Source: an uncultured Victivallales bacterium
Lineage (GTDB): Bacteria; Verrucomicrobiota; Lentisphaeria; Victivallales; UBA1829
Length of the DNA stretch: 38,087 nt
Direction: 5' to 3'
NCBI GenBank assembly: GCA_964483055.1
Contig: CAZAAM010000001.1
Coordinates: 1 to 38,087 of the forward strand
The translations under genes were made by a program, and so were the position numbers. The first letter of the stretch is position 1; every line of letters begins with the position of its first letter. Under the pieces are notes generated by a model. That model did not search any database and had not been told where the DNA came from. It saw only the letters and a list, made by a program, of their open reading frames with translations. This document shows positions 3,809 to 28,957 of the stretch, one piece after another.

Positions 3809-3890
3809 CGCCGCGTTCTCTCCTTGCGCTCGACAACGTTCGCGAAAAAAACGGAGAAGATCCCATTTTTTTCTCATGTACGCATATTCG

Positions 3891-3927
3891 CAATACGGCG
3901 ATGCAATACGGCGATGCAATGCGGATG
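3891..3927. repeat. Tandem 13-mer CAATACGGCGATG x2 plus a degenerate third copy (CAATGCGGATG)
   Basis: Read directly: 3891-3903 and 3904-3916 are identical, and 3917-3927 is a shortened copy. It lies in the 277-bp dus-arnB spacer, about 100 nt upstream of the arn promoter candidate. Confidence 0.85.
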
Positions 3928-4017
3928 TCGCCACGCGCATGGTCTTAATTCACAACGCTTCGCATCGTTTCTCTCTTGCCAAAATCTTGTACGGAGAAAA
4001 AAAATCGCCGGATGCCA

Positions 4018-4046
4018 TTGAAAAAAAATGCGCGAAGCTGTATAGT
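4018..4046 (+). promoter_or_regulatory. Candidate sigma-70 promoter of the arn operon, TTGAAA-17 nt-TATAGT
   Basis: TTGAAA at 4018-4023 and TATAGT at 4041-4046, about 40 nt upstream of the arnB ATG. Confidence 0.4.
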
Positions 4047-4085
4047 AGTCTACGGTTTTCATGCGAAAGAAAGGTCACTTATCTT

Positions 4086-5243
4086 ATGCGCTCTACATTC
4101 CTTCCCTTCTCCAAGCCCTCGCTTTTGGAATGGGAAATCAAAGCGGTTGAAGATGTTCTGCGATCCGGATGGATTACGACCGGACCGAAGAACGCGGAAT
4201 TCGAGCAGAAGTTTTGCGAATACGTCGGCGCGGCGCATGCCGTTCCGATGACCTCCGAAACTGCGGTGATGTTCGCCCTGCTTCGCGCCATCGGACTTAA
4301 GCCCGGAGATGAAGTCGTATCCCCTTCCATGACATGGGTCTCCCTGCCGAATGCGGTCAGTCTGTTCGGCGCGCGCATATCCTTTGCGGACTGCGACCGC
4401 GACACGCTCATGTCCACGCCGGAAATGCTGGAGGCGGCCGTCACGCCGCGCACGAAACTGATCGTGCCCGTCCATTTTGCAGGAAGCGTCGTCGAACTTG
4501 ATCGAATCCGCGATTTTGCGGCACGACGCGACATCATGCTCGTCGAGGATGCGGCGCATGCGCTTGGAGCGGAATTCAAGGGCGAACGCATTGGCAAGCA
4601 TGGCACTTGCATGTTCTCCTTTCATCCGATCAAGAACATCACCACAGGCGAAGGCGGCATGTTCACGACTCCGGACAAGGCGCTCGCGGAACGCGTCCGC
4701 AGTCTTAAGTTTCACGGGCTTGGAGTGGACGCCTACGACCGTCAGACGAACAACCGTGCGCCGCAGGCTCAGGTTATCGAACCTGGATATAAGTTCAACA
4801 TGCCGGACATGCAGGCAGTCCTCGGCATCACCCAGCTTTCTCGCGTGGAGGAAATGAATCGTCGCCGCGCGGAAATTTGCGCCCTTTATATGGAAAAGCT
4901 TGCATCCGTGCCGGAACTCATGCCGCTCGCCGAGCCTAACTACGAACACAAGCACTGCCATCACCTCATGATCGTGCGTCTCGACATCGAGAAGGCAGGC
5001 ATCGGACGCGACGAATTCATGGAAGCCTTGAAAAAGGAGAACATCGGAACGGGACTGCATTTCCGCTGCGTCCACAAGCAAAAGTACTACCGCGAAACCT
5101 ACGACATTCCCGACGGCGCGCTGCCGAACACGGAATGGAATTCGGATCGCATCTTCTCCCTGCCTCTGTTCCCGGAAATGACGGAGGACGATGTTGACGA
5201 CGCGATCGGCGCGTGCAAGAAAATTTTGAACGAACGTCATTGA
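4086..5243 (+). CDS. arnB: UDP-4-amino-4-deoxy-L-arabinose--oxoglutarate aminotransferase (DegT/DnrJ/EryC1 family)
   Basis: Track ORF 3762..5243; the ATG at 4086 starts the homologous part MRSTFLPFSKPSLLEWEIKAVEDVLRSGWITTGPKNAEFEQKF. The PLP-Lys context is FSFHPIKNITTGEGGM. It lies in an arn gene context. Confidence 0.9.
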   Translation: MRSTFLPFSKPSLLEWEIKAVEDVLRSGWITTGPKNAEFEQKFCEYVGAAHAVPMTSETAVMFALLRAIGLKPGDEVVSPSMTWVSLPNAVSLFGARISFADCDRDTLMSTPEMLEAAVTPRTKLIVPVHFAGSVVELDRIRDFAARRDIMLVEDAAHALGAEFKGERIGKHGTCMFSFHPIKNITTGEGGMFTTPDKALAERVRSLKFHGLGVDAYDRQTNNRAPQAQVIEPGYKFNMPDMQAVLGITQLSRVEEMNRRRAEICALYMEKLASVPELMPLAEPNYEHKHCHHLMIVRLDIEKAGIGRDEFMEALKKENIGTGLHFRCVHKQKYYRETYDIPDGALPNTEWNSDRIFSLPLFPEMTEDDVDDAIGACKKILNERH

Positions 5244-5258
5244 GGTTTTTTCCGCGTC

Positions 5259-7175
5259 ATGTCTGACTTCACCATACTCCGCTTTCAGGAATGCAGCGAA
5301 AACCTTCTTTCTCAGCTTGCCAAGTCGAAGCGGTGGATTTTTTTCTGGGTTTTCGCGTTCCTGCTCGTCTTCTTCAATCTCGGTCTTGACTCCATTGTCG
5401 GTTCGGAGGGACGCTGGTTCGCCGTCGTCCGCGAAATGCTTCTTTCCGGCGACTGGCTTCATCCGACCATCAACGGACAGCCCTACTTCGACAAGCCGCT
5501 CGTCAGCTACTGGTTCATGGCGTTTCTGTCGAAATCGGTCAATCAAGGCGTTCTGAACGAATTCCTTGCCCGAGCTCCGAGCGCGATCTTCGCCCTTCTT
5601 GCTATGGTCGCGCTGATCCGCCTCGCGCGACGTCTTTACGGCGAATCCGCCGCATGGCTCGCCGCATGGATCTTTCTGACGATCCATTCCTTCGCCTACT
5701 GGGGACGTCGGGCGGAAGCCGATATGGAAAGCCTCGCATTCATTCTGATCGCCGTGCTGTGGTACGTTTCGTCGAGGAAAGCGAAGTCCTTCTTCCGCTA
5801 CTTCCTTTTTTGGTTCGTCTGCGCGATCGGCGCGCAAACCAAAGGGCTTCCCTGCTTCGTCATTCCAGTCGGAGTCGTCCTTGTCGACATCGCCATGCGC
5901 AACGATTGGCTCAAGCATCTGAACTGGAAGTTCCTGCTGGCCTTCCTCTGCGGCATGGCGTGCTACTTCCTGCCGTTCTTAGCGGAGGGGATGACCCGGG
6001 ACGGCGATTATGGCGCGAATGGCTTGGAGCTCGTCTTCCGCGAAAATCTTGTGCGCACCTTCAATCCGTGGGATCACAATGACTCTCCCTGGTTCATGTA
6101 CTTCCCATGGACGGCGCGACTCATGCTGCCATGGACTCCTTTCTTCGTCCTTGCCTTTGCGGCTTTCCTCATGCGGGGCTGGAAGAAGGCGTCTCAAGAG
6201 GATCGCTGGCTTGTCCTTTCCATCGTATTGATCTTCGCGCTGTTCGCGATTTCCAAATCGCGGCGCGTTTATTACATTCTTCCAATCGTCCCCTTCTGCG
6301 TTCTGCTGACAGCGGCATGGCTGACGCGGGCGGATCTTCCCTTGCACAGGATTTCGGAAATTCTGTTCAGAATCGTGGATTTTGCAATTCCTGTCGCTTT
6401 GCTGCTCGTACTTCTGATCACGCCGATCTATCCGTTCGCGATCCACGACCGTATTTTCCCGGAAGGGGTTCCCCTGCCGTACTGGTATCCGCTGATGATC
6501 TACATCCTTTTCCCGGCAGTCGCATTCATATGCTTCAGTTTTTGGATCATCTCGTTCGTCCGTGAGCGGAAAGGCAAGACGGCGCTTTGCGCGTTCTCCA
6601 CGCTTCATGCATCCTTGAATCGAATCGTTCCGATTCTCGCAGTCGTCTTTCTGCTCGTTTTTGCCATCATCATTCCGACTTTCCGCAGCTCGCCGGTCTT
6701 CCAGCCGCAACCCGAATTCTTCCGCTCTGTCGGAGAATACGTCCGGACGCTGAACTTGCCGAACGGCTCTGTCGGCTTCTTCGGAAAGAACCGTTCGATC
6801 GCAAAGGCTGCATTCTATTTGGATCTTCCGGAACCGATGCGTCTTTTCGCCATGAATCGGATCGACGCCGAATCGCGCAGCTTCTATGACGACACGGTGG
6901 AAAGCGGCGGGATCGACGAGCTTCGCGACTTCATTGCGAATGCGAAGAAGGACGGAGGCGTCCTGATCGCGCAAAAGCGCACGGTCATGGAAGCTCCGGA
7001 AGACATTCAGAATGAATTTCAATCCCTTGATGTCGCAATGGAGCCGCTGGACATCATGGAGATAAAGAAAGTTCGAGAATATCAGGCGAAAGGCCGTGCG
7101 GACAAGGTCGAATCCGTCCTGAAGAAGAAAATGTTGATCCGTTATTACTTCCCGCCGAAAGGAACGAAGGAATGA
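5259..7175 (+). CDS. arnT: Undecaprenyl-phosphate-L-Ara4N:lipid A transferase, ArnT/PMT-type GT-C glycosyltransferase
   Basis: Polytopic membrane protein with the ArnT/PMT signature EGRWFAVVREMLLSGDWLHPTINGQPYFDKPLVSYWF and a downstream QTKG loop. At 638 aa it has a soluble tail longer than the roughly 550-aa enterobacterial enzyme. Confidence 0.8.
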   Translation: MSDFTILRFQECSENLLSQLAKSKRWIFFWVFAFLLVFFNLGLDSIVGSEGRWFAVVREMLLSGDWLHPTINGQPYFDKPLVSYWFMAFLSKSVNQGVLNEFLARAPSAIFALLAMVALIRLARRLYGESAAWLAAWIFLTIHSFAYWGRRAEADMESLAFILIAVLWYVSSRKAKSFFRYFLFWFVCAIGAQTKGLPCFVIPVGVVLVDIAMRNDWLKHLNWKFLLAFLCGMACYFLPFLAEGMTRDGDYGANGLELVFRENLVRTFNPWDHNDSPWFMYFPWTARLMLPWTPFFVLAFAAFLMRGWKKASQEDRWLVLSIVLIFALFAISKSRRVYYILPIVPFCVLLTAAWLTRADLPLHRISEILFRIVDFAIPVALLLVLLITPIYPFAIHDRIFPEGVPLPYWYPLMIYILFPAVAFICFSFWIISFVRERKGKTALCAFSTLHASLNRIVPILAVVFLLVFAIIIPTFRSSPVFQPQPEFFRSVGEYVRTLNLPNGSVGFFGKNRSIAKAAFYLDLPEPMRLFAMNRIDAESRSFYDDTVESGGIDELRDFIANAKKDGGVLIAQKRTVMEAPEDIQNEFQSLDVAMEPLDIMEIKKVREYQAKGRADKVESVLKKKMLIRYYFPPKGTKE

Positions 7176-8176
7176 ATCGCCCTATCGAACTCTCGCTGGT
7201 CATCCCGGTCTACAATGAAGAGGCGAATCTGCCTGAACTGATCCGCAGAACGACTGCCGTCTGCGACGGACTCGACGCAACCAGCGAAATCATTCTCGTC
7301 GACGACGGAAGTCGCGACGATTCCATGCGCATGATCATCGAAGCAAGTCGGACGAATCCTAGAATCGTCGGAGTGATTCTCTCCGCGAACTTCGGGCAGC
7401 ACGCCGCTGTCACCGCCGGATTGAAGACCTCGCGCGGACGCTACGTCGTTACGCTTGACGCCGACCTGCAGAATCCGCCGGAGGAGATTCCGAAGCTGCT
7501 CGCCAAGCTCCGCGAGGGCTACGACGTCGTCGGCACGATCCGAGAAAACCGGAAAGACACGATCTTCCGCAAGCTTGCGTCCAAAATGGTCAACCTCATG
7601 GTACGCAAGCTCTGCAATGGGCGAACGATGACCGACTACGGATGCATGCTCCGCGGCTACAGCCGTTCCGTCGTCGACGCCGTCCTGCTCTGCCCGGAAA
7701 ACGGCAAGTTCATTCCGATGCTCGCAATGAACTACGCGCGCAAAGTCACGGAAATCGAAGTGAAGCATGCGGAACGCATGGCGGGCGAATCCAAGTATAC
7801 GGTCCTCAAGCTGATTGCGCTCCAGTACGACCTTCTGACCGGAACGAGCACATTCCCGCTCCGTCTTCTGACGTTCTTCGGCTTTCTCGTCGCGCTTTTC
7901 GGATTCGTCTTCGGAGTCATCGTCTTCATCGTCTCGCAACTCGACAAGGACTGGGGCGAAAACGGCATCTTCGCTCTTTTCTCCATCGCCTTCATTCTTC
8001 TCGGCGGACAGTTCGCCGGCATGGGACTTCTGGGCGAATACATCGGAAAGATCCATCTCAACGCCCGAGCGCGACCGCAGTTCTTCATCGAATCCGTCCA
8101 TCGGAACGGCGATGCCGCTCCCGACATAAACGAAGCAAGCAATGTCAGCGACAATACGAATCAAACAACCAAATAG
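7172..8176 (+). CDS. arnC: Undecaprenyl-phosphate 4-deoxy-4-formamido-L-arabinose transferase (GT2)
   Basis: ATGA overlap with arnT. GT2 motifs LSLVIPVYNEE, ILVDDGSRDDS, VTLDADLQNPPEEI, plus two C-terminal TM helices as in ArnC. Confidence 0.9.
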   Translation: MNRPIELSLVIPVYNEEANLPELIRRTTAVCDGLDATSEIILVDDGSRDDSMRMIIEASRTNPRIVGVILSANFGQHAAVTAGLKTSRGRYVVTLDADLQNPPEEIPKLLAKLREGYDVVGTIRENRKDTIFRKLASKMVNLMVRKLCNGRTMTDYGCMLRGYSRSVVDAVLLCPENGKFIPMLAMNYARKVTEIEVKHAERMAGESKYTVLKLIALQYDLLTGTSTFPLRLLTFFGFLVALFGFVFGVIVFIVSQLDKDWGENGIFALFSIAFILLGGQFAGMGLLGEYIGKIHLNARARPQFFIESVHRNGDAAPDINEASNVSDNTNQTTK

Positions 8177-8188
8177 TGAGAAGGGCTT

Positions 8189-10177
8189 ATGAAAGCAATC
8201 GTCTTCGCTTACCACAACATCGGATGCGTCGGAATCGAACGCCTCATCGAAGCAGGCTTCCAAATCGAAGCCGTATTCACGCATGCCGACGACCCCAATG
8301 AAAACGTCTGGTTCCGCTCTGTCGCGGAAACCGCTTCCAAATACGCAATTCCGGTCTTCGCGCCGGAAAACGTCAATCATCCGCTGTGGGTCGAACGCAT
8401 CCGTCGGATGGAGCCGGACGTCTTCTTCTCTTTCTACTATCGCGGCATGCTCAAGCAGGAGCTGCTCGACATCCCGAAAAAAGGCGCGTTCAACCTGCAT
8501 GGCTCACTGCTTCCGAAATACCGCGGACGCTGCCCGATCAATTGGGCCGTCGTCAACGGCGAAACGGAAACCGGCGTAACCCTGCACAAAATGGTCGTTA
8601 AGGCTGATGCAGGAGATATCGTCGCGCAGGAGAAATTCCCCATCGACGACAACGACACGGCGCTCGACGTGCATAAGAAAGCCGCTGCTGCTGCAGACGC
8701 CCTGCTCGCACGAGTTCTGCCTTCAATCCTCGATGGAACTTGGACCGCTGCGCCGCAGAACGAAGCGGAAGCCGCCGTTTACGGAGGCCGCAAGCCTGCG
8801 GACGGTCTTATCGACTGGAATGCGAGCGCGAAAAGCATCCGCAATCTAGTGCGCGCCGTAACCAAGCCCTACCCCGGCGCATTCAGCTTCTTCGCATCGA
8901 AAAAATACCTTTTCTGGGACGTCACAGTCGTTCCGGCGGAGAAGACTGCTCCCGCGGGTTCGATTCTTTCGCTCGATCCCCTGACGATCGCCTGCGGTCA
9001 GGATGCGCTCCGCATCAATTTCGCGCAAGCGGAGAACGGTCTCTACTGCACCGGCGCCCAGCTCGCGGCGGACGCTCGCTTCGTCGAAAAAGGTCAGTTC
9101 GTCTCCAGCGCGCGACCGCTCGGACGCCGCAAGACCAGCGTCCTCATTCTTGGCGTCAACGGATTCATCGGCAGCGCCATCAGCAACCGTCTGCTCGCCG
9201 ACGGAAACTACGAAGTCTATGGCATGGATCTGAGGAGCAACTATATCAACGACTTGCTGGACAATCCGGACTTCCATTTCTTCGAGGGCGACGTTCAAAT
9301 CAATCATGAATGGATCGAATACCATGTCCGCAAGTGCGATGTCGTTCTTCCGCTCGTCGCCATCGCCACGCCGATCGAATATACGCGCAACCCGCTCCGC
9401 GTGTTCGAACTCGACTTCGAAGAAAACCTGAAGATCGTCCGTTACTGCTTCAAGTACAACAAGCGCATCATCTTCCCCTCTACGAGCGAAGTCTATGCCA
9501 TGTGCGACGATGAAAATTTCGACGAAGACAACTCCCGCCTGATCCTCGGTCCGATCCGCATGCAGCGCTGGATCTACTCCTGCAGCAAGCAGATGCTCGA
9601 TCGCGTCATCTGGGCTTATGGCGCCAAGGGTCTCAAGTTCACGCTCTTCCGGCCATTCAACTGGATGGGGCCGAAACTTGACTCCCTCTCCTCCGCCCGC
9701 ATCGGCAGCAGCCGCGCAATCACGCAGCTGATCCTCAATCTCGTTCAAGGCAACCCGATCCTTCTCATTGACGGCGGCGAACAGAAACGATGCTTCACGC
9801 ACGTCACCGACGGCATCGAATGCCTCTTCCGGATCATCCGCAACGAAGGCGGTCGCTGCGACGGAAAGATCATCAACATCGGCAACCCGGACAACGAAGC
9901 AAGCATTCGCGAAATGGCGCGCATCCTCGTGGAAGAGTTCGACAAGCATCCGCTTCGTTCGAAGTTTCCGCCCTTCGCCGGCTTCAAGGAAGTCGAAAGC
10001 GGCTCTTTCTACGGCGAGGGATATCAGGATTGCAAACACCGCAAGCCGAGCATCCGCAACGCCGCGCGCTATTGCGATTGGAAGCCCGTCGTCCCCTTCC
10101 GCGACTCCATTCGCGAGACGCTCGATTTCTTCCTCCGCCAGGCCATCGCCTCCGGCGAATTCGGAATCGAAAAATGA
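8189..10177 (+). CDS. arnA: Bifunctional UDP-Ara4N formyltransferase / UDP-glucuronate C-4'' decarboxylase
   Basis: 662 aa. The N-terminal formyltransferase domain shows [22 protein letters not shown]. The C-terminal SDR domain shows [12 protein letters not shown] and the YSCSK catalytic context. The two-domain layout is diagnostic of ArnA. Confidence 0.95.
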
Positions 10178-11079
10178 AGATCGCCCTTCGCGTCGACGTC
10201 GACACCTTCCGGGGAACGCGTCATGGCGTTCCCTCCCTGTTGCGCGCTATGGATCGCCACGGCGTCCGCGCCGCCTACTTCTTCTCCGTCGGACCGGATA
10301 ACATGGGACGGAATCTTTGGCGTCTCCTGAAGCCGACGTTCCTTTGGAAGATGCTTCGAACCAGCGCAGCCAGCCTCTATGGGCTCGACATCCTTCTCAT
10401 GGGAACTATGTGGCCTGGACCGCGCATCGGACGCCGCAACGAATCCGCGCTTCGCGACTGCGCGGCCGCCGGACATGAAATCGGTCTTCATGCGTGGGAT
10501 CATTACGCTTGGCAGAATAGAATCGATCAACTTGCCCCGGAGACGATCCGAACGCATCTGAGGCGCGCTTACGAGGAGATCGACCGCATCATCGGCACGC
10601 CGCCGACCTGTTCCGCCGCGCCTGGCTGGAAATGCGTCAACGCCGTCCTTCTCGCGAAGGAAGAGTTCCATTTCCAATATAACAGCGACTGCCGCGGAGA
10701 CAAGCCGTTTCTTCCTGTCGTTGAAGGCAAGCGTCTATCCACGCCGCAGATCCCGCTGAACATGCCGACCTATGACGAAATGCTCGGACGCGACGGAGTC
10801 ACCCGCGACAACTACAACGAGCGGCTCCTTGCGACAGCGAATCCGGACGGATTCAATCTTCTGACCATTCATGCCGAGTCCGAGGGAGGCGCATGCGCCG
10901 ATCTCTTCGACGACTTCCTTTCCATGGCGAAGGCGCGCGGGGTCGAATTCTGCGCGCCTGGCGACCTTCTTTCTTCCGCCCCTGCAGATTCTCTTCCCTC
11001 CGCTGAAATCGAGAAGGGCGTTCTTCCCGGACGCGAAGGCTGGCTGGCTCTGCAGAAGGATATCGTCCTGAGCGAGTGA
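10174..11079 (+). CDS. arnD: 4-deoxy-4-formamido-L-arabinose-phosphoundecaprenol deformylase (polysaccharide deacetylase fold)
   Basis: Track ORF 9790..11079; the ATG at 10174 overlaps the arnA stop (ATGA). [46 protein letters not shown] matches the ArnD N-terminus, and HAWDH is a metal-site His context. Confidence 0.9.
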
Positions 11080-16670: not shown

Positions 16671-17399
16671 ATGAAACGCCAGGACGACTCGCGGAATCAT
16701 GCGAGATTCATCAAAATGACATTGACTATCATAATCTTCTGTCACTATTTGATTGCGACGGCTCTTCTTGCCGCAGGATGCGCGGCATCCGACGATTATG
16801 CAATCTTCAAGGCGTTTCCGATATCGACCGAGCCTGCGTCCCCATGGTCGAATCCCGACGATGAGACATTTACGCCGTTCCAGCTCGCGCCGGTCTGCGC
16901 TCCATACGGCTGCCTCTTTCCGCTTCGGGCGAGCATCTTCGGAATTGGAATCGGCGCGATTCTTTCCCCTTTGGACCTTTATGGACTCGGACTTGCGGGC
17001 GGCACGTTCGCCGGAAGCCATGCAGGCGTTCTCGCTTCGGCGCTTCTCGTCTCCGACAGCGGATATGGAATCACCCTTTCGCTCGCATCGAATCAAACTC
17101 GAAACTATGGACTTGCGATTGGAGCGCTGAACATGGTCAGGGAAAACTTCGGAGCGATGATCGGCCTTGTCAACAAGAATGACGACGTGCTTTATCCTTT
17201 CGTTTCCGACGCGGCGGACGACCCAACGGAAAGCGCGTTCAACATTCAGATCGGACTCTTCAACTCCTGCCATCACGGTCTGCAGATCGGGCTGCTGAAT
17301 TATAATTCACGCGCCTTGATTTCCTGGATGCCGATTTTCAATTTCGCACCATTTCAACACGAAAAAGACCATGACGGCGACAGCGATCAGTCGCTCTAA
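16671..17399 (+). CDS. Lipoprotein with Gly/Leu/Asn-rich surface repeats (GLQIGLLN-type)
   Basis: Track ORF 16611..17399; the ATG at 16671 follows GGAGGG. Lipobox LLAAGC. The C-terminal half has repeats GLAIGALNMV, MIGLVNKN, IQIGLFNS, GLQIGLLNYN, ending in PIFNF. Confidence 0.7.
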   Translation: MKRQDDSRNHARFIKMTLTIIIFCHYLIATALLAAGCAASDDYAIFKAFPISTEPASPWSNPDDETFTPFQLAPVCAPYGCLFPLRASIFGIGIGAILSPLDLYGLGLAGGTFAGSHAGVLASALLVSDSGYGITLSLASNQTRNYGLAIGALNMVRENFGAMIGLVNKNDDVLYPFVSDAADDPTESAFNIQIGLFNSCHHGLQIGLLNYNSRALISWMPIFNFAPFQHEKDHDGDSDQSL

Positions 17400-21741: not shown

Positions 21742-22590
21742 ATGATCGAGCCGCAAGACTATTTGGAGCCGCCCTGCCCCTTAGATTCCGCCGCCTGCTC
21801 CTGCAATGGCTCGCATCGCCATGCAGAGCGCCGACACGGAGCCCCGCAACGCCGCATCCCGCTGGCAAAGGTCATTGCGGAATGCGACGCACTGTTCAAC
21901 GCGGAAAAGATGGACGAGCTTGGTTTGCATCTGCGTCGCTGGCTGGCGGAAGCGCGCGCGATCGAGGATCGTCAGAGCGAACTGTCGATTCTGAACGAGC
22001 TCATGGGCCATTACCGCATGACTGGCGACAAGGAACGCGGCCTGCTGGCCGTGCGGGACGGCTTTCGTCTTCTTGCAGAGCTCGGAATCGGCGGAAGCGT
22101 CAGCGCCGGGACAATCCTCATCAACGGCGCGACGGCCCTGAAAGAATTCGGCGAAACCGAAGAGGCGCTCGCCCGCTATGCGGACGCATTTCGTTGCTAT
22201 GACAAGCATTTGGATCCAAACGACTGGCGTTTCGCAAGTCTGCTGAACAACATGGCCGCCGCCTATGCGGAGTCCGGCGACATTGAACGCGCGGAGGCTT
22301 ATTACGGCAAGGCGCTCGACGTGCTTGCCGCATGTGGAAACAGGATTGATGCAGCCGTCACGCATGTCAATCTTGCACAGCTTCGGCATCAAGTCGATCC
22401 TGAAGACAAACGCATCGCGGAGGATCTTGATCGCGCACTGGAATGTCTGAACGATCCGGACGTGAAGCGCGACGGATATTATGCTCACACATGTCGCAAA
22501 TGCGCCTCTGCATTCGATTTCTTCGGTTGGTTTCGTGATGGCGCGGATTTGAACAAGCGCGCAGACGCCATCTATCATGCAAGGACTTGA
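21742..22590 (+). CDS. Tetratricopeptide-repeat protein, function unknown
   Basis: TPR-like text (LNELMGHYRMTGDKERGL; LLNNMAAAYAESGDIERAEAYYGKALDVL). Cys/His-rich N-terminus PPCPLDSAACSCNGSHRH. Begins 30 nt after the TrxR-like gene. Confidence 0.65.
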   Translation: MIEPQDYLEPPCPLDSAACSCNGSHRHAERRHGAPQRRIPLAKVIAECDALFNAEKMDELGLHLRRWLAEARAIEDRQSELSILNELMGHYRMTGDKERGLLAVRDGFRLLAELGIGGSVSAGTILINGATALKEFGETEEALARYADAFRCYDKHLDPNDWRFASLLNNMAAAYAESGDIERAEAYYGKALDVLAACGNRIDAAVTHVNLAQLRHQVDPEDKRIAEDLDRALECLNDPDVKRDGYYAHTCRKCASAFDFFGWFRDGADLNKRADAIYHART

Positions 22591-23503
22591 TCTAGCAAAA
22601 GCCTTTTATCTGGAATGCGTTCTTCCTATGCTTGAACGCGACTTTTCCAAAGAGCTTCCTCGCATCGCGATCGGCTTGGCGGGACGCGGCTCCGAATGCT
22701 TCGGCTTTGATGACGACATCTCGCGCGACCATGACTTTCAGATCGGCGTTCTGCTATGGATCACGCCGGAAGACGATGCGGCGTTCGGACATCGTTTGAT
22801 GCGTTCCTATTGCATGCTCCCAAAGGAGTTCCGCGGAATTCGAATGCAAAAGCGCAGCGCAGGCGGATTTGTTGAGCATGGAGTCTGTTCCATCCCTGAC
22901 TTCTTCGAACTGCACATTGGAATTCCCGGCGCCCCGCGAACTTGGCAGGAATGGCTTGACACGCCGGATTACGCTTTCGCGGAAGCGACGAACGGTGTCG
23001 TCTTCCGAGACGATTCCGGCGTCTTTTCCGGCGTGCGGGAAACGATCCTGCATGGCATGCCCGAGGATGTTCGCCTCAAGAAAATGGCGGCGAGAGCGGC
23101 TCTTATGGCACAGTCCGGACAATACAATTTCTCTCGCTGCGAAAGGCGCGGAGAACGCGGCGCGGCAACCCTCGCCCTTGCGGAATTCGTCCGCAACGCG
23201 ATCCCCCTTGTCTTTCTCCTGAACAAGTCCTTTGCGCCCTATGAAAAATGGATGTTTCGCGCCATGCGGTCTTTGCCCCGACTGGGCTTTCTTGCTGACG
23301 ACCTGACGCATCTGCTCGTCGGCGCCGAACCGCCTCCGCGCAAAACCGCTCGTTTGGAATTCATCTGTGCGAAAATCATCGAAGAGCTTAAAAGACAAGG
23401 CATTTCCGACTCGAACAGCGACTACTTGGAACATCATGCGCTTTCCATGACGAAACGGATTCGCAACCATGACATTCGCGCACTGCATCTCATGGAAGGA
23501 TAA
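22577..23503 (+). CDS. DUF4037-type protein with Pol-beta-like nucleotidyltransferase signature
   Basis: The N-terminus GLAGRGSECFGFDDDISRDHDF fits the hG[GS]x9-13Dh[DE]h NTase motif. The overall text resembles DUF4037 family members (recalled, not searched). It overlaps the TPR gene by 14 nt. Confidence 0.65.
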   Translation: MQGLDLAKAFYLECVLPMLERDFSKELPRIAIGLAGRGSECFGFDDDISRDHDFQIGVLLWITPEDDAAFGHRLMRSYCMLPKEFRGIRMQKRSAGGFVEHGVCSIPDFFELHIGIPGAPRTWQEWLDTPDYAFAEATNGVVFRDDSGVFSGVRETILHGMPEDVRLKKMAARAALMAQSGQYNFSRCERRGERGAATLALAEFVRNAIPLVFLLNKSFAPYEKWMFRAMRSLPRLGFLADDLTHLLVGAEPPPRKTARLEFICAKIIEELKRQGISDSNSDYLEHHALSMTKRIRNHDIRALHLMEG

Positions 23504-23534: not shown

Positions 23535-24758
23535 TCACCTGCCCTTGCCGGAAATGGAAATGCAAGATGCCGCGGAGCCTCTGTTCGCCAGAGAATAGGC
23601 GGGGCGCACGGTCGTCCGCTCGGAAAGAGGCGGCATGTGATCCAGAACGATGTCCGGAATCCGCCAGCACTCGCCGCGAAGGGCGTTCAATTGTGCAAGA
23701 AGTTCGTTTGGAGCTGTTTTTGAATATTGGAGCGCATTGCGAACGGCGACGGCGGCGAATGAGAAAAGCGGATATTTCGAAGCTGAATTCTTGAAATGCT
23801 CCGTCGCTTCGGCATATAGTGCGTCGAAACTCTTCGGATTGCGCTTGCACGCCTCGATCAACAGGGCGTGCTCCCATGCGCCGTAATCGTCGGGACAGAT
23901 TCGGATTCCCAGACGGCAGAGCGCAGAGGCCAGTTCGCTGTTCCTCTGATTCAGAAAGACTCCGAGACCGATCAGGCCTTTGATTACGCGATGATTCTCC
24001 TGCGTGAGCTGCGGCGGATCCAGACGAAGAATCCGTTCGTACCAGTCGTGGTATTTCTCCGTCAAATAGTGCGCCATCCATGCAAAATCGCGCTTGTTGT
24101 TTTGGATGTAAATATGGGAGTTCTGCCGCGCGTGCACGCGATAGAGAGTGCGCGGCCGCACATCGTAATGAAAGTCCGAATCTTCCGCGAAACGGATCAT
24201 CAGGAAGACGTCGTCGTTGATCGAGCTTCCTTCCAGCGGACGGAAGCTGTCGTGCCGGAGAAGATCGCTCTTGCGGATCAGCATTGCATTGATGTTGATT
24301 TTCGGAGTGAAGAAGGCGGAAAAGCAGGAAATATCGGCGCCGTGCACTTCGCCGGTCAAGCCCCGATCGTTGAACAGGAACTTGCGCGCATAACTCGCGC
24401 AATAGTGCGGATTCGCGTCGAGAAATTCGATGAGACCGCGCAGGTCGAACGGCAGCATGACGTCATCCTGGTCGAAGGAAATGACATAGCGGCCGCGGCT
24501 TTCCGCTGTCATGACGCAACGCGCCTTGCCGATTCCTCCGTTCGTCTTCGTCCCCAGCGTCCGAATCAAATCCGGAGCTTTCCTGCGCGCCTCTTCCAAC
24601 AGGGTCGCCGCGCCGTCCGGCGAAGCGTCGTCGTACAGCAGAATCTCCGCCGGTCCGTAGTATCGAGCGACGCGGACGACGCTCGCAAGCATTGTCCGAA
24701 AATGCTCCGGATTCGGCTTGTAAACCGGAATGATGAAGGATGCGACTGGGTTCCGCAT
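23535..24758 (-). CDS. Family-2 glycosyltransferase with helical C-terminal domain
   Basis: Track ORF 23535..24977; the ATG at 24758 gives MRNPVASFIIPVYKPNPEHF..., ILLYDDASPDG, ISFDQDDVMLP (DxD). The C-terminal 150 aa or so are helical and possibly TPR-like. Confidence 0.8.
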   Translation of the reverse strand: MRNPVASFIIPVYKPNPEHFRTMLASVVRVARYYGPAEILLYDDASPDGAATLLEEARRKAPDLIRTLGTKTNGGIGKARCVMTAESRGRYVISFDQDDVMLPFDLRGLIEFLDANPHYCASYARKFLFNDRGLTGEVHGADISCFSAFFTPKININAMLIRKSDLLRHDSFRPLEGSSINDDVFLMIRFAEDSDFHYDVRPRTLYRVHARQNSHIYIQNNKRDFAWMAHYLTEKYHDWYERILRLDPPQLTQENHRVIKGLIGLGVFLNQRNSELASALCRLGIRICPDDYGAWEHALLIEACKRNPKSFDALYAEATEHFKNSASKYPLFSFAAVAVRNALQYSKTAPNELLAQLNALRGECWRIPDIVLDHMPPLSERTTVRPAYSLANRGSAASCISISGKGR

Positions 24759-24784
24759 GTCGATTCCGCGCCTCTTTCGCTCAT

Positions 24785-26179
24785 TCAGCGTTTCTTTTTG
24801 ACGATAGGCGAATAATCGATGTTCGGATGCGTGAAATACGCAGGCCCCTGAATCTCCTTCGCCGCAATGCGCGCCTGAAACGCCGGAATCCGCTCGATCG
24901 TCTCCATGACCATCTTCGGCGTGATCGCGCGCGTGCACTCGATTTCGCGTTGCGTGCCGGCATGGCGCGGACACCAAACAGGGGCTTTCGGATCGAAGAA
25001 TTCGCGGGAGTCGTTCCAGCAGCCGTGGCAGAACAGGAAGTTCGTAACACGGTAGGGCGTCGGAAATTCGCTTCCGTCCAGAGTGAAGCCGGCAAGCATC
25101 ACGACAGGGATGTCGCAGTTCCAGGCGAGCCAGGAAAGTCCGCTCGGCAAGCCTATGAAGAAGTCGGCATGCTCCATCAGACGCATGCGTTCGCTGATCG
25201 GCTTGAACCCAGTAAGATCCTCCGCTTCCGTCGGAACTTGAAAATGGCGTCCTGCGAAGTAAAGGTCATGATCGCGGTCGATGCACAGCACGCGGTAGCC
25301 GAACCCCTTGAGCCAACGAATGATCGTGTTCCAGCCGTCCGGGAAGTTCCAGTATTTCGCCGGATTCGTCGCCATGGTGGATATGACAACGAAAGGCTCC
25401 TGAAACGGGCGCGGACTGCCGAGTCGCATTCGGCATTTGATATCCTGAAGGGGAACGTCGAGAATCGCTTCTACCGCGCGCTGCATGCCGAGATTCTGAT
25501 GATCGATCGGACGCCACGGCTTCTTCTCTTCCGAAAAGATTCCGCAGAAATAGCATGCGTAAGCATCCTTGAGGGAGGGTTTTTCTCCAATGGGCAGAAA
25601 CTTCAAACCGGGATACATGTCTCGCCCCAGCCAACGAATCATCCATTCGCCCATGACGCATGTGACATCCGCGTGCTTCAGCTTGCGAAACTCCTCCACG
25701 ATAGGCAGCCATGCCAGATTGTCGCCGAGTCCGCCGTCCGGAACGATGACGTACACCTTGCGACCCCTGCAGTCGTAGTCGTAGCTCCAAAGCGGCTCGC
25801 AGGATCCGTCCTCCTTCTTCTTATCGACTTCGATGTGATATGGGATGAAGAACTTCCGCTCTCCGACGAGCATCGTTCCGCCCTTGGCATCGTGCGAAGA
25901 CAGCATCGAGCCGCTCCGCATGTCGTAGATGCGGACTTGAAACATGTCGTCGCTCTTCGGCAGAAGCACGCGAACGCCATAGGCGAAATCGTAACGTATT
26001 CCGTGTTCGCCTTCGTGAACCGGGCGCTCCGCGATGGAAACCGAGCATTGGCTGTTGCGCGGATCGGGCCCGATATCCGGTCCGATCGGGGGCGGAGCCT
26101 TGCGCGACGGGGCGCCGAGCATGCCGGGCATGCTTGCATTGAATACGAGCGGGGTGTTCTTGAACTGGTAAGTGGCCAT
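24785..26179 (-). CDS. TibC/Aah-type (BAHT family) protein O-heptosyltransferase-like enzyme
   Basis: GAGGAG SD. Text closely parallels autotransporter heptosyltransferases as I recall them: YDYDCRGRKVYVIVPDGGLGDNLAWLPIVEEF, KYWNFPDGWNTIIRWLKGFGYRVLCID, GLPSGLSWLAWNCDIPVVMLAGFT. A four-Cys iron-finger-like set is present: CHGCWND...WCPRH...ECTR. Confidence 0.8.
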   Translation of the reverse strand: MATYQFKNTPLVFNASMPGMLGAPSRKAPPPIGPDIGPDPRNSQCSVSIAERPVHEGEHGIRYDFAYGVRVLLPKSDDMFQVRIYDMRSGSMLSSHDAKGGTMLVGERKFFIPYHIEVDKKKEDGSCEPLWSYDYDCRGRKVYVIVPDGGLGDNLAWLPIVEEFRKLKHADVTCVMGEWMIRWLGRDMYPGLKFLPIGEKPSLKDAYACYFCGIFSEEKKPWRPIDHQNLGMQRAVEAILDVPLQDIKCRMRLGSPRPFQEPFVVISTMATNPAKYWNFPDGWNTIIRWLKGFGYRVLCIDRDHDLYFAGRHFQVPTEAEDLTGFKPISERMRLMEHADFFIGLPSGLSWLAWNCDIPVVMLAGFTLDGSEFPTPYRVTNFLFCHGCWNDSREFFDPKAPVWCPRHAGTQREIECTRAITPKMVMETIERIPAFQARIAAKEIQGPAYFTHPNIDYSPIVKKKR

Positions 26180-26215
26180 GCCGATTCTCCTCGCGTTTGC
26201 GTCGTTCCGCGGCTC

Positions 26216-26740
26216 CTATGCTATGTCTGCATTGCGTGTGAATTGCCGCCCATGTCCGCGGAAAGGCTGCAACTGTCGTTTTCTCATGAGGAAAGCGCCG
26301 AATTCCAGAATGCGATTTCGCCGTCCCGGACGGCGTTTCCTGTGGAGAAGTCCACATTCTTTGGATTCGCGCAGAATATGAATTCGATTCGAGTCCAAGC
26401 GCTGGTCTCCGCATCGACCGATGTCGTCGGAGTCAGCGCGCCGTCCGTGAAATCGTTCGTCTCCGCCTGTCTGAGGCTCGTCGCTCAGAAGAATTTCGCA
26501 GAGATCGAAACCGCGTTCATGCCGTCCGAAAACGACGGGGACGCAAGCTCGGACGTCGCATGCGCCGCGGGACACGCGGACGCATCCGACCGGGTCGATT
26601 TCGATTCCGGAAATCCGTTGATCGGAGGAGATGCGAGATACGGCGCGAGAAAGCGGATTCGCCTGATTCAAGTCAGGGCGAATGCCGATGGAAAGAAGCC
26701 GAACGCCGGCGTTCGGCGCTGTTCCTCTCCATGCGTCCAT
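26216..26740 (-). CDS. Hypothetical protein; strand and frame unresolved (see findings)
   Basis: AGGAGA-9 nt-ATG at 26740 and operon-compatible spacing support this ORF. However, the product is about 16% Arg and resembles the antisense shadow ORFs elsewhere. The codon-aligned plus frame and a second minus frame both look at least as protein-like. Confidence 0.35.
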   Translation of the reverse strand: MDAWRGTAPNAGVRLLSIGIRPDLNQANPLSRAVSRISSDQRISGIEIDPVGCVRVSRGACDVRACVPVVFGRHERGFDLCEILLSDEPQTGGDERFHGRRADSDDIGRCGDQRLDSNRIHILRESKECGLLHRKRRPGRRNRILEFGAFLMRKRQLQPFRGHGRQFTRNADIA

Positions 26741-26834
26741 ATTTCCATCTCTCCTGATTTTCATTCTTGCATATTCCGTGTTCTTCAAAAACTTTCGTCG
26801 CGTTTCAGCGACGGGAATAGGAGCGGCTCACTTT

Positions 26835-27683
26835 TCACATCTTCAACTTCAACGTCTCCATAATGTCCGCATCCAAATGCGCATGAAACGCCAGCGGCTC
26901 GTAGACCTGCTCCAGCATTTCAATGAATTCGAAGCACTTCAGAGACCAAGCGCGTTTCATTTCCAACGGCAGCTTGGAAATGATGTGAAACGCGTGAAGA
27001 GAAAATGCGCTTAGAAACTGCGCTCTGCGCATTTGACGATCGACCGGCGCAATGAATTCTCTGTCTTCCCCGCGCGTCAGCCAATAGATGTGATCCACGA
27101 TCACGCTCCTCTTGAAGGGATACAGGAATCCGTCCGGTCCGCTGCGATAGAAAGCGCTCCAAGTCGGCAGCGGATGCGCCCGGAAGGCGCTCCCGTCCCA
27201 AACCAGCAGGATCTCGTCGTCGGCGAAGCAGAGACCGCCCGCCTTGCGAAAACGCTTGGCCGTCGTGCTCTTTCCGATTCCGCTCTGTCCATACAAAAGA
27301 ATGCCGTGTCCCGGCTCCGTCTCGAGAAGCGTGCCATGCGTCATGGCAAGCGAAGGCGTCCGAAAAAAGGCATGAATGCAGGCGCAAGCCAACAGAAGAC
27401 GCCACTCGGACGGCACGAACGGCTTGACGACTTTCGGATCACGCAGGACTTGAAATTCGCCGTTGGAATCCGCCGCAAGATCCACAGTCCAAATGCGGAA
27501 TGGCTCGAAGCCGGAAGAAAGCTCTGTCGTCAAGAGAGAATCCGGCGGAACATCCGAAGCTCCCGTGCAGGAAAGGCCAAGGAGTTTTGCAAAACGATGC
27601 AATGAAAGAGCTGGAAGCTCCCCCTGCGCCCGCAGGACGACGCTCCCAGCGCCTGTTTTCAAATTCAGGTCAACACGTTCCAT
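26835..27683 (-). CDS. HPr-kinase-C-terminal-domain-like P-loop serine kinase (HprK-related)
   Basis: Track ORF 26835..27779; the ATG at 27683 has GGAGG 9 nt upstream, whereas the ATGs at 27779 and 27731 lack a good SD. THGTLLETEPGHGILLYGQSGIGKSTTAKRFRKAGGLCFADDEILL parallels the HprK core H-G-x-l-v-x-x-x-G-x-G-v-L-i-x-G-x-S-G-x-G-K-S-E...ADD. Confidence 0.75.
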   Translation of the reverse strand: MERVDLNLKTGAGSVVLRAQGELPALSLHRFAKLLGLSCTGASDVPPDSLLTTELSSGFEPFRIWTVDLAADSNGEFQVLRDPKVVKPFVPSEWRLLLACACIHAFFRTPSLAMTHGTLLETEPGHGILLYGQSGIGKSTTAKRFRKAGGLCFADDEILLVWDGSAFRAHPLPTWSAFYRSGPDGFLYPFKRSVIVDHIYWLTRGEDREFIAPVDRQMRRAQFLSAFSLHAFHIISKLPLEMKRAWSLKCFEFIEMLEQVYEPLAFHAHLDADIMETLKLKM

Positions 27684-28102
27684 GAACGGAAGCCTCCAGA
27701 TTCGCTCGCCGCAATCCGCGGAGCGGGACATTTTGCCTTGTTTGCTTTGCAAAGAAAAAACATTTTCGCAATATATCATTTCACTTACGAAAAATCAAAT
27801 CCCTTTTCCAGCCGCGTCCTGCATTTTGCCTGCGCCGCAGACATCTTTTTTCAATTCGAAACGATGACGGCCGTCTTTTCGGATTCACACTGCAGAGAGC
27901 GTTTGCATTTTTTCCGTATTTGAATTATAGTAACCGTCAAGAAGAATCGCGCCTGTTCGTTTCCTAATCATGCGCGCCGCCTTCCGTTTCCCGCTTCCTT
28001 GTTGCCAATGGAAACGCCTTTTTCAAAACGGACGGACGGCGCACGGACGCGACTCCAACCGAATGTCGTTGTCAACTCAAGTCAATTGAAAGGCAGCATG
28101 TC

Positions 28103-28957
28103 ATGATGAAGCGTCTCTCTCTTTTCGCCGTCGCTGCGCTGGCCGCGCTAGGATCCTTTTCCATCTCATTCGCGCAACCGCCCGCATCCAATGCTGCGAA
28201 GTCCGTCCGTCCCGAAAGCAGAAAGGTCAACCCCGAATTCGCGAAGCTGATGAATGAAAACGCGGCCTTCGTTCAAACCTATTTCAGGAATCCGAATCCG
28301 GACGGGATCTCGGAAATGTTGCGGAAATTCGATAAGGCGGCCGCAATCACTCCGCTCAATGCGACCTCGGTCGCGCCGCTCATAGGCTTCCTCATGGAAG
28401 TCTTCCGAAGCAATCCGGGGCGCATCGACGGGTGGATGGAGCTCGTCGACTCGTTGCAGTCGCCGCAGTTGCGCGAGGCGACGCTGAACGGACTTCTCTT
28501 CGCCGGAACCGAGTCTGCGAAGGCGGCCGCGAAAAAATACATCGCCAAGCATCCGGAATACAAGGACATCGATCCCTATAACCTCCGCAAGCCCGGCTTC
28601 CTCGATGGCGAAATCCGCAATCCGACGAAGATTTCCGCCTGCTGGGGCGCGTACTTCGCCTCGGGAAAACAGGAATATTCCCAGGCTGTCCTTGCCTGCG
28701 CCGTCCGAAATCCGGAAGCGAACAATCCGGCCGACATCCTCTGCGTCCGTTCCGCTCGCCTTGGGCTGGTCCTTTTCTCCCAAAAGAATCCAGAGTTGAA
28801 GAAGATGCTTTCCGAGTTTCTCCAAAACGCGACGCCTGAACAAAAAAAAGGATTCGCCATGGTCATGAGCGAAGAAATGCAAAAGCAGACTTTCGGCTCC
28901 GTCCTTTATCCGCAGAAGCGCGTCCGTCTTCAGAAAGAACAGTCTCCCGCGCAATAA
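28103..28957 (+). CDS. Secreted, mostly helical protein of unknown function
   Basis: Signal peptide MMKRLSLFAVAALAALGSFSISFAQ. No family recognised. Divergent from the kinase/heptosyltransferase cassette. Confidence 0.65.
   Translation: MMKRLSLFAVAALAALGSFSISFAQPPASNAAKSVRPESRKVNPEFAKLMNENAAFVQTYFRNPNPDGISEMLRKFDKAAAITPLNATSVAPLIGFLMEVFRSNPGRIDGWMELVDSLQSPQLREATLNGLLFAGTESAKAAAKKYIAKHPEYKDIDPYNLRKPGFLDGEIRNPTKISACWGAYFASGKQEYSQAVLACAVRNPEANNPADILCVRSARLGLVLFSQKNPELKKMLSEFLQNATPEQKKGFAMVMSEEMQKQTFGSVLYPQKRVRLQKEQSPAQ

Follow-up and report, generated by a model that had tools for sequence, protein, structure and literature searches.

Bacterial autotransporter heptosyltransferases (BAHTs) are known as partners of the autotransporter adhesins of proteobacterial pathogens; ADP-heptose-dependent O-heptosylation of serine and a dodecameric ring are among the traits of the family. 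ScmC, a component of the SynChlorMet (SCM) cassette, belongs to a family (TIGR04249) whose definition includes a PqqD homolog and PqqE-like radical S-adenosylmethionine (radical-SAM)/SPASM proteins in the same cassette. HprK-like enzymes, for their part, phosphorylate the C-terminal serine of lasso peptide precursors (PMC8498205). Here we analyze a stretch of 38,087 nucleotides (the whole of which is hereafter called the window; contig CAZAAM010000001.1) from a Victivallales (Lentisphaerota) bacterium of the gut or rumen, in which a minus-strand cassette at 23535..27779 encodes an ScmC-like P-loop protein, a BAHT and a GT2-family glycosyltransferase, with a 655-bp gap between the first two. 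A previous inspection of the same DNA without database searches (the sequence-only reading) had pointed to these four closely spaced units, all of which are present, and had regarded them as an orphan cassette that may modify serine in several steps, with a putative order of phosphorylation, heptosylation and hexosyl extension. Our analysis suggests that the cassette is most likely an adhesin-glycosylation system of a known kind, placed in a setting without autotransporters, the cis substrate gene of which either has decayed or was collapsed by assembly. The features of the cassette are the following:

27770..27798, minus strand: sigma-70-like promoter match upstream of the ScmC-like gene (TTGATT, 17-nt spacer, TATATT, TG extension; consensus match only)
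26835..27731, minus strand: probable ScmC-family HprK-like P-loop protein (precomputed PF27840 match; alternative starts at 27779 and 27683)
26796..26813, minus strand: terminator-like hairpin directly past the ScmC stop codon (consensus match only)
26180..26834, minus strand: gap of 655 bp between the P-loop gene and the BAHT gene
26554..26775, minus strand: relic of the start of a giant gene, with upstream leader, ribosome-binding site and ~60 initial codons (homology to locus L010)
26216..26740, minus strand: ORF174, an open reading frame (ORF) of 174 codons that spans the gap, probably a decayed remnant
26225..26553, unstranded: ~330 nt without giant-gene, Pfam or PDB similarity
24785..26179, minus strand: BAHT-family (TibC/Aah) heptosyltransferase of clade 1, 464 aa (TIGR04414, TibC structures)
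23535..24755, minus strand: GT2 glycosyltransferase (GT-A) with a helical C-terminal half resembling tetratricopeptide repeats (TPRs), 406 aa (PF00535)

The Heptosyltransferase and its GT2 Partner

The 464-aa protein matches TIGR04414 with 390.1 bits (cutoff 200), its residues 51-431 covering positions 2-374 of the 374 in the model, and contains the domains PF21129 TibC_1st (47.6 bits; cutoff 27) and PF01075, the GT9 core (29.9 bits; cutoff 22). Residues 50-430 align to residues 13-385 of TibC (structures 4RB4/4RAP) with an E-value of 3.5e-84, and the residues whose roles have been defined on the TibC structure (PMC4358343) are present at the equivalent positions: D153 matches the catalytic base Asp110; T271, K275, R331 and W350 match the sugar-binding Thr226, Lys230, Arg286 and Trp305; and P345 matches the stereoselectivity determinant Pro300, which makes it the TibC or D,D-heptose type. 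The iron-finger cysteines 339, 342, 358 and 370 of TibC align with C384, C387, C403 and C415, and all four are invariant among 32 homologs. The assignment of this protein to the TibC/Aah type, including the CxxC...C...C iron finger recognized by the sequence-only reading, thus stands. Because the TIGR04414 match is accompanied by conservation of the functional residues of TibC, an alternative identity as a WaaC/WaaF-like GT9 enzyme of the lipopolysaccharide core does not apply, and by family membership the protein is unambiguously a TibC/Aah-family heptosyltransferase. Residues 1-50 (26030..26179) form an N-terminal extension with a near-invariant PxIGPEIGPDPRN motif that is common to Victivallales BAHTs and absent from Escherichia coli TibC, the alignment beginning at residue 50 of the window protein and residue 13 of TibC.

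A survey restricted to one genome per species yielded 587 relatives of this BAHT; the clade counts given here refer to the best 80 of the 587, in which neighboring genes were assigned by panel tblastn, hidden Markov models (HMMs), long-ORF composition and precomputed gene calls. All 80 come from metagenome-assembled genomes (MAGs) of Victivallales/Lentisphaeria, mostly from rumen and gut, and they form two paralog clades, with several MAGs possessing one member of each. Clade 1 (31 loci, 26 with enough flank) shows 55-62% identity to the window BAHT, and clade 2 (49 loci, of which 41 have 1.5 kb or more of downstream flank) approximately 40%.

The GT2 protein of the cassette matches PF00535 with 58.9 bits, and its second half is helical with a weak TPR signal; an AlphaFold2 model obtained from 2 sequences has a mean predicted local distance difference test (pLDDT) score of 40. 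Orthologs with 34-47% identity are encoded directly downstream of the BAHT in 15 of the 26 clade-1 loci with enough flank, and in L025, L037, L040 and P0034 the two proteins are fused into a single BAHT::GT2 polypeptide. Fusions of this kind are strong evidence of functional coupling, and the coupling of BAHT and GT2 that had been proposed earlier is borne out by both the adjacency and the fusions; as judged from gene organization, the BAHT-GT2 pair is the robust unit of the cassette. A profile of 15 GT2 orthologs retrieved from PDB generic GT-A matches only, confined to the N-terminal part (GalT1 5HEA, 3BCV and the TarS-like 5TZE), the best of which, to 5HEA (E 4e-13), extends over the N-terminal ~100 residues only. 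A SunS-like, glycocin-type identity of the GT2 found no support in this profile, no S-glycosyltransferase being among the PDB matches.

Giant Repeat Proteins as Neighbors of Heptosyltransferases

In clade 2, a giant ORF rich in Ser, Gly, Thr, Ala, Val and Asn lies directly downstream of the BAHT gene in 18 of 41 loci, and the GT2 gene of the cassette in none. Seven adjacent clade-2 giants were examined for tails and repeats, and all of them carry TIGR04415 (cutoff 30 bits) and/or Pfam AIDA repeats above cutoff, with RTX, type IX secretion system (T9SS)-sorting, Ig, fn3 or PPC tails. No autotransporter barrel was detected in the scanned giant neighbors, the tails of which are of the RTX, T9SS, Ig or FG-GAP kinds. 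The window likewise lacks an autotransporter, a lasso peptide gene and a PqqD gene, as the sequence-only reading had it (Pfam scans of large ORFs; tblastn and HMM searches for PqqD). The missing autotransporter, however, is not the anomaly for which it was taken but the normal condition in this phylum, in which the neighbors of BAHTs are RTX-, T9SS- or Ig-tailed repeat proteins. Many BAHT-adjacent giants share a conserved RTX-containing C-terminal module of ~260 residues that probably serves in export or anchoring; it has the form ...LTDDANGDALF.DDIY...IDEIRAGAGDD..DLTS..., followed by RTX repeats and ...VTLWF..GS..W...LKFGDD...KIFE...G.LA, and was seen in L037 (1..804), L043, L058, L070, L075, L076, L081, L082 and L083.

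The closest view of the region that corresponds to the gap in the window is offered by L010 and L011. Both keep the upstream order of the window (PTS-EIIA/CBS protein, CitMHS, FAD oxidoreductase, DUF3047, a secreted protein of ~284 aa, ScmC), and past ScmC, after ~90-160 nt, both have a giant ORF that runs to the contig end, with a minimum length of 1204 aa (L010) or 775 aa (L011). Both giants lack a signal peptide, and Gly, Ser, Ala and Val predominate in their composition. AIDA-type repeats make up their N-terminal part; in the L010 giant, residues 38-133 align to the 19-residue AIDA repeats of P0125, a PF16168 protein (192 bits), with 35% identity (E 7e-10), and AIDA-repeat proteins are the sole database relatives of both giants.

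Three further loci show a similar arrangement. In L114, whose BAHT is 62% identical to that of the window, the gene order is an AIDA/TIGR04415 protein of 1222 aa (169.5 bits), a DUF362/ferredoxin gene, ScmC, a complete AIDA-like protein of 957 aa (E 2e-12 with the AIDA-I model) and two BAHTs. In L037, the RTX-repeat C-terminus of a giant ends just upstream of the ORF for the BAHT::GT2 fusion, and L025 has the order ScmC, PqqD, BAHT::GT2 fusion (797 aa) and a repeat protein of at least 770 aa. Given these arrangements, the gap in the window corresponds to a slot that is occupied by a putative substrate gene in several independent lineages. The tandem BAHTs of L114 (10001..12692) are a 519-aa clade-1 protein followed by a 383-aa protein that matches TIGR04414 with 292 bits.

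On the other side of the gap, L001-L003, with BAHTs 94% identical to that of the window, retain the downstream order BAHT, GT2, DUF4037, TPR protein and TrxB-like protein. The three contigs, which come from different sequencing runs, all begin exactly 64 nt upstream of the BAHT gene, a common start that is consistent with assemblies breaking at a repeat-rich upstream gene. The first 17 nt of these contigs differ from the window.

The Gap as the Probable Relic of a Giant Repeat Gene

Within the gap, 26554..26775 (minus strand) shows 74% nucleotide identity (E 3e-33) to 10969..11197 of L010. There, the stretch runs from the leader through a ribosome-binding site (AGGAGAGA) and the ATG into the giant gene, of which it covers the initial ~60 codons; the window has kept both AGGAGAGA and the ATG. 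At the protein level, the start of ORF174 is ~49-50% identical to the N-terminus of the L010 giant over 60 residues (E 4e-9), ORF174 reading MDAWRGTAPNAGVRLL...ISGIEIDPVGCVRVSRGACDV and the L010 giant MDEWTETALNGGVQIL...ISGIEIAAGGSVCVSNGGLATN. By comparison, the flanking ScmC and secreted proteins are 88.6% and 85.2% identical to their L010 counterparts, and the divergence between ORF174 and the L010 giant equals that of the intact genes in the far more distant pair L010/L011. The GC content at third codon positions (GC3) of ORF174 is 0.57 (0.53 past codon 62), against 0.61-0.77 in 15 genes of the window and 0.68-0.75 in intact giant genes. Moreover, Arg makes up 17% of ORF174, as opposed to the prevalence of Gly, Ser, Ala and Val in the giants; ORF174 has also lost the SGG/NGG repeat motifs, GG has changed to AG, and there are small indels. 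Apart from ORF174 itself, 1.84 billion representative proteins yielded a single weak match, to an Ig-like repeat. Fast divergence, atypical composition and loss of motifs together argue that ORF174 is probably a decayed remnant rather than a functional gene.

The claim of orphan status thus has to be divided. The window is indeed without an intact substrate gene, but the cassette is not a true orphan, as the spacer is probably the relic of an AIDA-like giant gene. Among the substrate candidates named by the sequence-only reading, the product of the spacer came close to the mark, whereas the other two, at 28103..28957 (secreted protein) and 16671..17399 (lipoprotein), fell away, no BAHT-target repeats having been found in either. 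The lipoprotein (plus strand) contains hydrophobic repeats of the GLxIGLxN type, is not Ser-rich, and shows no Pfam or NCBIfam match and no AIDA-type similarity; going by its sequence, it is unlikely to be a BAHT substrate.

As for the rest of the gap, no open frame of either strand in 26225..26553 has a Pfam or PDB match, and by codon-position GC this segment agrees better with the in-register plus frame than with the minus frame. A plus-strand ORF at 26252..26863 has the more genic codon-position GC but is doubtful as a real gene, being an in-register mirror of ORF174 with no Pfam or PDB match. The C-terminus of ORF174 could not be identified with the C-terminal/RTX module found in the giants: HMMs built from nine of these, for the final 70 and the final 300 residues, matched no frame in the gap. 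An 8-residue identity between ORF174 and L037, AETNDFTD, lacks conservation in the family and was discarded as not significant (E 0.95). As to a possible invertible element, the inverted repeats around the gap were limited to short matches at chance level.

Two further observations concern the start of the relic. A perfect 10+10 palindrome, GCCGAACGCC followed by GGCGTTCGGC, with a T-rich tail, lies at 26698..26717 (minus strand) inside the first codons and was scored as terminator-like; its L010 counterpart differs at several positions and is not a perfect palindrome. The giants of L010 (11006..11050) and L011 (8868..8910) begin with MDEWTETALNGG and MNELDVLALDGG, respectively, each followed by VQ, and thereby resemble a short double-glycine leader, at the GG-type position of which the window relic (26690..26740) has NAG. 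C39-peptidase ABC exporters are encoded in the sister cassettes L073 and L117.

The ScmC-like Protein and other Accessory Genes

The likely start of the P-loop gene, by analogy with the L010 gene call, is 27683 (MERVDLNL), giving 282 aa; in the protein collection, the gene product has 298 aa and starts at 27731. The protein scores below the cutoffs of the HPr kinase models, with 27.5 bits for PF07475 Hpr_kinase_C (cutoff 33.3) and 24.3 bits for TIGR00679 (cutoff 240), and what aligns to HPr kinases is limited to ~45-56 residues that surround the P-loop and DD pair. The match to the ScmC model TIGR04249 reaches 68 bits (cutoff 125), and PF27840 ScmC is listed for the window protein and its homologs. 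When a profile of seven ScmC-type sequences was compared with PDB, the top four matches were HprK/P structures (E 7e-9 to 2e-8), followed by the ABC ATPase AlgS at 7.6e-5, so that a better fit to an unrelated ATPase family can be set aside. The HprK-like core that was tested, HG..L(x6)G.G.L..G.SG.GKS....L......ADD, is likewise closer to HprK/P than to other P-loop ATPases. All of 7 homologs compared share, without variation, the motif G-x-S-G-x-G-K-[ST]-T, the DD pair and P-T-W, and the window protein has GQSGIGKST and PLPTWS. By these sequence features the P-loop protein is probably a member of the ScmC family. With HprK/P first among the PDB matches and HPr kinase scores below cutoff, the label "HprK-like" given by the sequence-only reading is fair, whereas "HPr kinase" proper is not. 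An AlphaFold2 model based on a 4-sequence alignment has a mean pLDDT of 38. We found no characterization of the ScmC family in the literature.

Homologs of the ScmC-like protein are rare: among 5.8 billion sequences there were three besides the window protein, and the two close ones come from L010 (89% identical) and L011 (74%). There are at least six loci, covering 55-94% BAHT identity, in which ScmC lies on the same strand as a clade-1 BAHT and within a few kb upstream of it, namely the window, the L010/L011 lineage, L114, L025, L040 and L017; in L073 it is found near a clade-2 BAHT. The co-conservation of the trio of P-loop protein, BAHT and GT2 accordingly receives a mixed answer: the exact trio is confined to near relatives and a few lineages, but ScmC itself recurs in L010, L011, L114, L025, L040 and L017.

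Partners of the SCM type, that is, PqqD and radical-SAM/SPASM proteins, are missing from the window, and tblastn and iterated HMM searches recovered no PqqD from the window or the gap. Such partners accompany ScmC in L040 (radical-SAM, ScmC, PqqD), in L025 (ScmC, PqqD) and in the metagenome loci L094, L096, L097 and L105. A scan of metagenomes with a P-loop pattern gave at least 21 distant ScmC loci, and in these environmental metagenomes the ScmC-type genes adjoin PqqD and several radical-SAM/SPASM genes and, among the matches listed, never a BAHT gene. Across clade 1 as a whole, the accessory genes include ScmC (L017, L025, L040, L114), PqqD (L008/L015, L004/L042, L025, L040, L117) and radical-SAM/SPASM (L004, L017, L040), and a divergent KamA-like gene is found upstream in 12 rumen loci. 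ABC exporters or peptidase-containing ABC transporters (PCATs) with HlyD/AprE partners occur in L008, L017, L117 and the clade-2 locus L073, and PCAT/HlyD genes adjoin the BAHT in L073 and L117. The absence of PqqD that had been remarked upon thus holds for the window but not for its sister cassettes, in which both PqqD and radical-SAM/SPASM proteins do occur. In L004 (8958..13947), the gene order is radical-SAM/SPASM, BAHT, PqqD, NTP_transf_5 and, last, a right-handed beta-helix protein (Pect-lyase/NosD) with a TAT signal, which is another possible beta-helical acceptor.

Proposed Function and Alternative Explanations

We propose, with a little more confidence than an even chance would warrant, that the locus is a cytoplasmic protein O-glycosylation cassette, that a giant repeat protein is the acceptor, and that its cis gene has decayed here. 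By analogy with characterized BAHTs (PMC4358343), the BAHT would use ADP-heptose in the cytoplasm to heptosylate serines in the loops of beta-helical repeats, and the GT2 would most likely add or extend a second sugar on the same acceptor. The natural acceptor would be a giant, signal-peptide-less, Ser/Gly-rich protein of the beta-helix type with AIDA-like strand-loop-strand repeats. Its export probably does not involve type V secretion and could proceed by a type I secretion system (T1SS)/RTX-type route, as suggested by the RTX tails, the lack of signal peptides and the adjacent PCAT/HlyD genes. The ScmC-like protein may perform an ATP-dependent step on the same substrate, such as phosphorylation of serine or sugar, or substrate handling. 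With the cis substrate gene reduced to a relic, the transferases, if active, would have to act in trans, their targets being similar proteins whose genes lie elsewhere in the genome.

Several observations weigh against this proposal. ORF174 is still open and is called as a gene in the protein collection, and the ~330 nt at 26225..26553 match no available giant-gene sequence at the nucleotide or protein level. The AIDA assignment of the relatives is partly marginal: the L010 and L025 giants stay below the Pfam AIDA and TIGR04415 thresholds, and the 957-aa protein of L114 barely reaches the TIGR04415 cutoff of 30 with 30.2 bits. Since the giant gene runs off the contig in both L010 and L011, its position next to the BAHT is, for this lineage, deduced from two-sided synteny and from L114. 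Furthermore, no ADP-heptose genes were found among the window ORFs scanned with Pfam. Most clade-1 loci, including the 12 rumen loci with the KamA-like gene, lack both the giant neighbor and ScmC, so that the association of ScmC and the giant with the BAHT is recurrent rather than obligate.

The breaks in the related contigs, within the giant gene in L010 and L011 and at its edge, 64 nt upstream of the BAHT, in L001-L003, also bring up an assembly artefact, whereby the giant gene is intact in the organism and its repeats were collapsed or skipped; in that event the cassette would be complete and only its interpretation as carrying a relic would be wrong. ORF174 being open across the junction fits this explanation, as does the alignment of its end, ..RNADIA*, with ..RRGTIA* at the edge of L001-L003. 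A collapse of repeats, however, would be expected to leave normal repeats on both sides of the junction, whereas the retained 5' part is itself degenerate (49% identity compared with 85-89% for the flanking genes, loss of SGG/NGG, GG to AG, indels), its GC3 is far under that of intact giant genes, and the following ~330 nt are not Ser/Gly-rich repeat and find no counterpart in the giant genes. We consider such an artefact rather improbable. More doubtful still is the idea that the cassette is intact and minimal, with a leader-bearing substrate, either the 174-aa product or some smaller gap-encoded peptide, that undergoes modification by ScmC, BAHT and GT2 in the manner of RiPPs (peptides made by the ribosome and modified after translation). 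The conserved N-terminal segment, ribosome-binding site and start codon, the open frame and its gene call, the occurrence of ScmC-family genes elsewhere in PqqD and radical-SAM/SPASM cassettes typical of peptide maturation, and the sister cassettes with PqqD and PCAT exporters would all be compatible with it. But the window contains no PqqD or other RiPP recognition element, exporter or protease, the codon-position GC of ORF174 is non-genic and its Arg content is 17%, the SGG repeats of the BAHT-target type seen in relatives are lost, no homolog of similar size is present in the representative library, and BAHTs act on folded beta-helical repeats (PMC4358343); we accordingly rate this idea as very unlikely.

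It is also conceivable, though quite unlikely in our estimation, that the genes do not constitute one pathway, the BAHT-GT2 pair acting on an unrelated acceptor (a protein encoded elsewhere or a non-protein glycoconjugate) and the ScmC-like gene being an SCM-type leftover that happens to lie nearby. The majority of clade-1 BAHT-GT2 pairs that have neither ScmC nor a giant neighbor, the distant ScmC loci that are never found with a BAHT among the matches listed, and the terminator-like hairpins past the ScmC gene speak for such a separation. It is countered by the recurrence of ScmC upstream of clade-1 BAHTs over the whole range of 55-94% identity and again near the clade-2 BAHT of L073, and by the retention in the window BAHT of all catalytic and substrate-handling features defined on TibC. 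A different extension of the glycosylation cassette with a decayed substrate gene, to which we assign a low probability, is that a RiPP-style toolkit (ScmC, the PqqD-type RiPP recognition element, radical-SAM/SPASM, NTP_transf_5 and PCAT) has been recruited to giant, leader-bearing beta-helical adhesins together with the BAHT-GT2 module, the window being a decayed instance. If this is the case, it would amount to leader-guided maturation on the scale of a whole protein, with heptosylation, a second glycosylation and phosphorylation preceding T1SS export.

Other Contents of the Window

The remaining genes of the window include znuA, an ABC ATPase, nrdDG, trxB, the TPR protein, DUF4037, the 284-aa secreted protein, DUF3047, the FAD oxidoreductase, CitMHS, the PTS-EIIA/CBS protein, thiC, an NMO-family gene and fabH. 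The Pfam-scanned ORFs contain no autotransporter barrel, lasso cyclase or B1/B2-type protease; besides the relic, no AIDA-like protein is encoded in the window, and no Rfam RNA family is found anywhere in it. At 21742..23503 (plus strand), convergent to the GT2 gene, lie the TPR protein, which has weak similarity to the TPR proteins of FxSxx-COOH systems (26.6 bits), and the DUF4037 protein; in L001 and L002 this pair is found in synteny. The window further contains, at 3762..11079 (plus strand), a complete arn-like set for the modification of lipid A with 4-amino-4-deoxy-L-arabinose, consisting of a DegT/ArnB-like aminotransferase, a PMT_2/ArnT-like transferase, an ArnC-like GT2, an ArnA-like fusion of formyltransferase and epimerase/dehydratase, and an ArnD-like deacetylase.

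Significance and Comparison with Known Systems

The BAHT enzyme family and the placement of a BAHT next to its repeat-protein substrate are already known. The phylum-wide use of non-autotransporter substrates, the pairing and fusion of BAHT with GT2, and the recurrent company of ScmC, PqqD and radical-SAM proteins appear to be undescribed; our literature searches returned nothing that links heptosyltransferases with PqqD, ScmC or Victivallales. A commensal phylum of gut and rumen with two paralog clades of BAHTs, at least one of them serving giant non-autotransporter proteins, would widen the range of substrates and secretion routes associated with heptosylation. From the BAHT-GT2 pairs and fusions one would expect such adhesins to carry an O-glycan built in two steps, and the recurrent ScmC/PqqD neighbors could offer an experimental handle on the ScmC family. 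With respect to annotation, the lesson is that an apparently orphan tailoring cassette may be explained by a substrate gene that has decayed or was not called.

At a conceptual level, the proposed pathway resembles that of the Gram-positive serine-rich repeat adhesins, in which several cytoplasmic glycosyltransferases act in sequence on serines of a giant repetitive adhesin before export. Unlike there, the enzyme of the first step belongs to an unrelated family, and no shared accessory secretion system is evident. With the HPr-kinase-like serine kinases of lasso peptides, such as those of paeninodin and of pseudomycoidin, the latter with a nucleotidyltransferase (PMC8498205), the cassette has in common an HprK-related P-loop protein in a modification cluster, and the sister loci L004 and L012 carry PqqD-like and NTP_transf_5 genes. 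It differs in that cyclase, B1/B2 proteins and precursor are lacking, the likely substrate has ~1000 aa or more, and the kinase activity is putative.

The similarity to ScmC of the SCM cassette (TIGR04249/PF27840) consists in the HprK-like core GxSGxGKST...DD...PTW and in relatives with PqqD and radical-SAM/SPASM proteins (L040, L094, L096, L105). In contrast, the window protein reaches 68 of the 125 bits at which the TIGR04249 cutoff is set and has neither of these partners, and the link to a BAHT and a giant repeat protein falls outside the SCM definition. The closest parallel is provided by TibC/TibA and Aah/AIDA-I (PMC4358343). Here, however, the host belongs to Lentisphaerota rather than to Proteobacteria, the neighboring substrates have RTX, T9SS or Ig tails instead of a barrel and lack a signal peptide, and the clade of the window BAHT is distinguished by the PxIGPEIGPDPRN extension of ~50 residues and by the paired or fused GT2, the substrate gene in the window itself being a relic. 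What the two share is the full TIGR04414 match, with the flattened N-terminal beta-barrel, the GT-B/GT9 core, the active-site residues and the iron finger, and, in the relatives of the window, the location of the enzyme gene beside that of a large protein with 19-residue repeats of the AIDA type.

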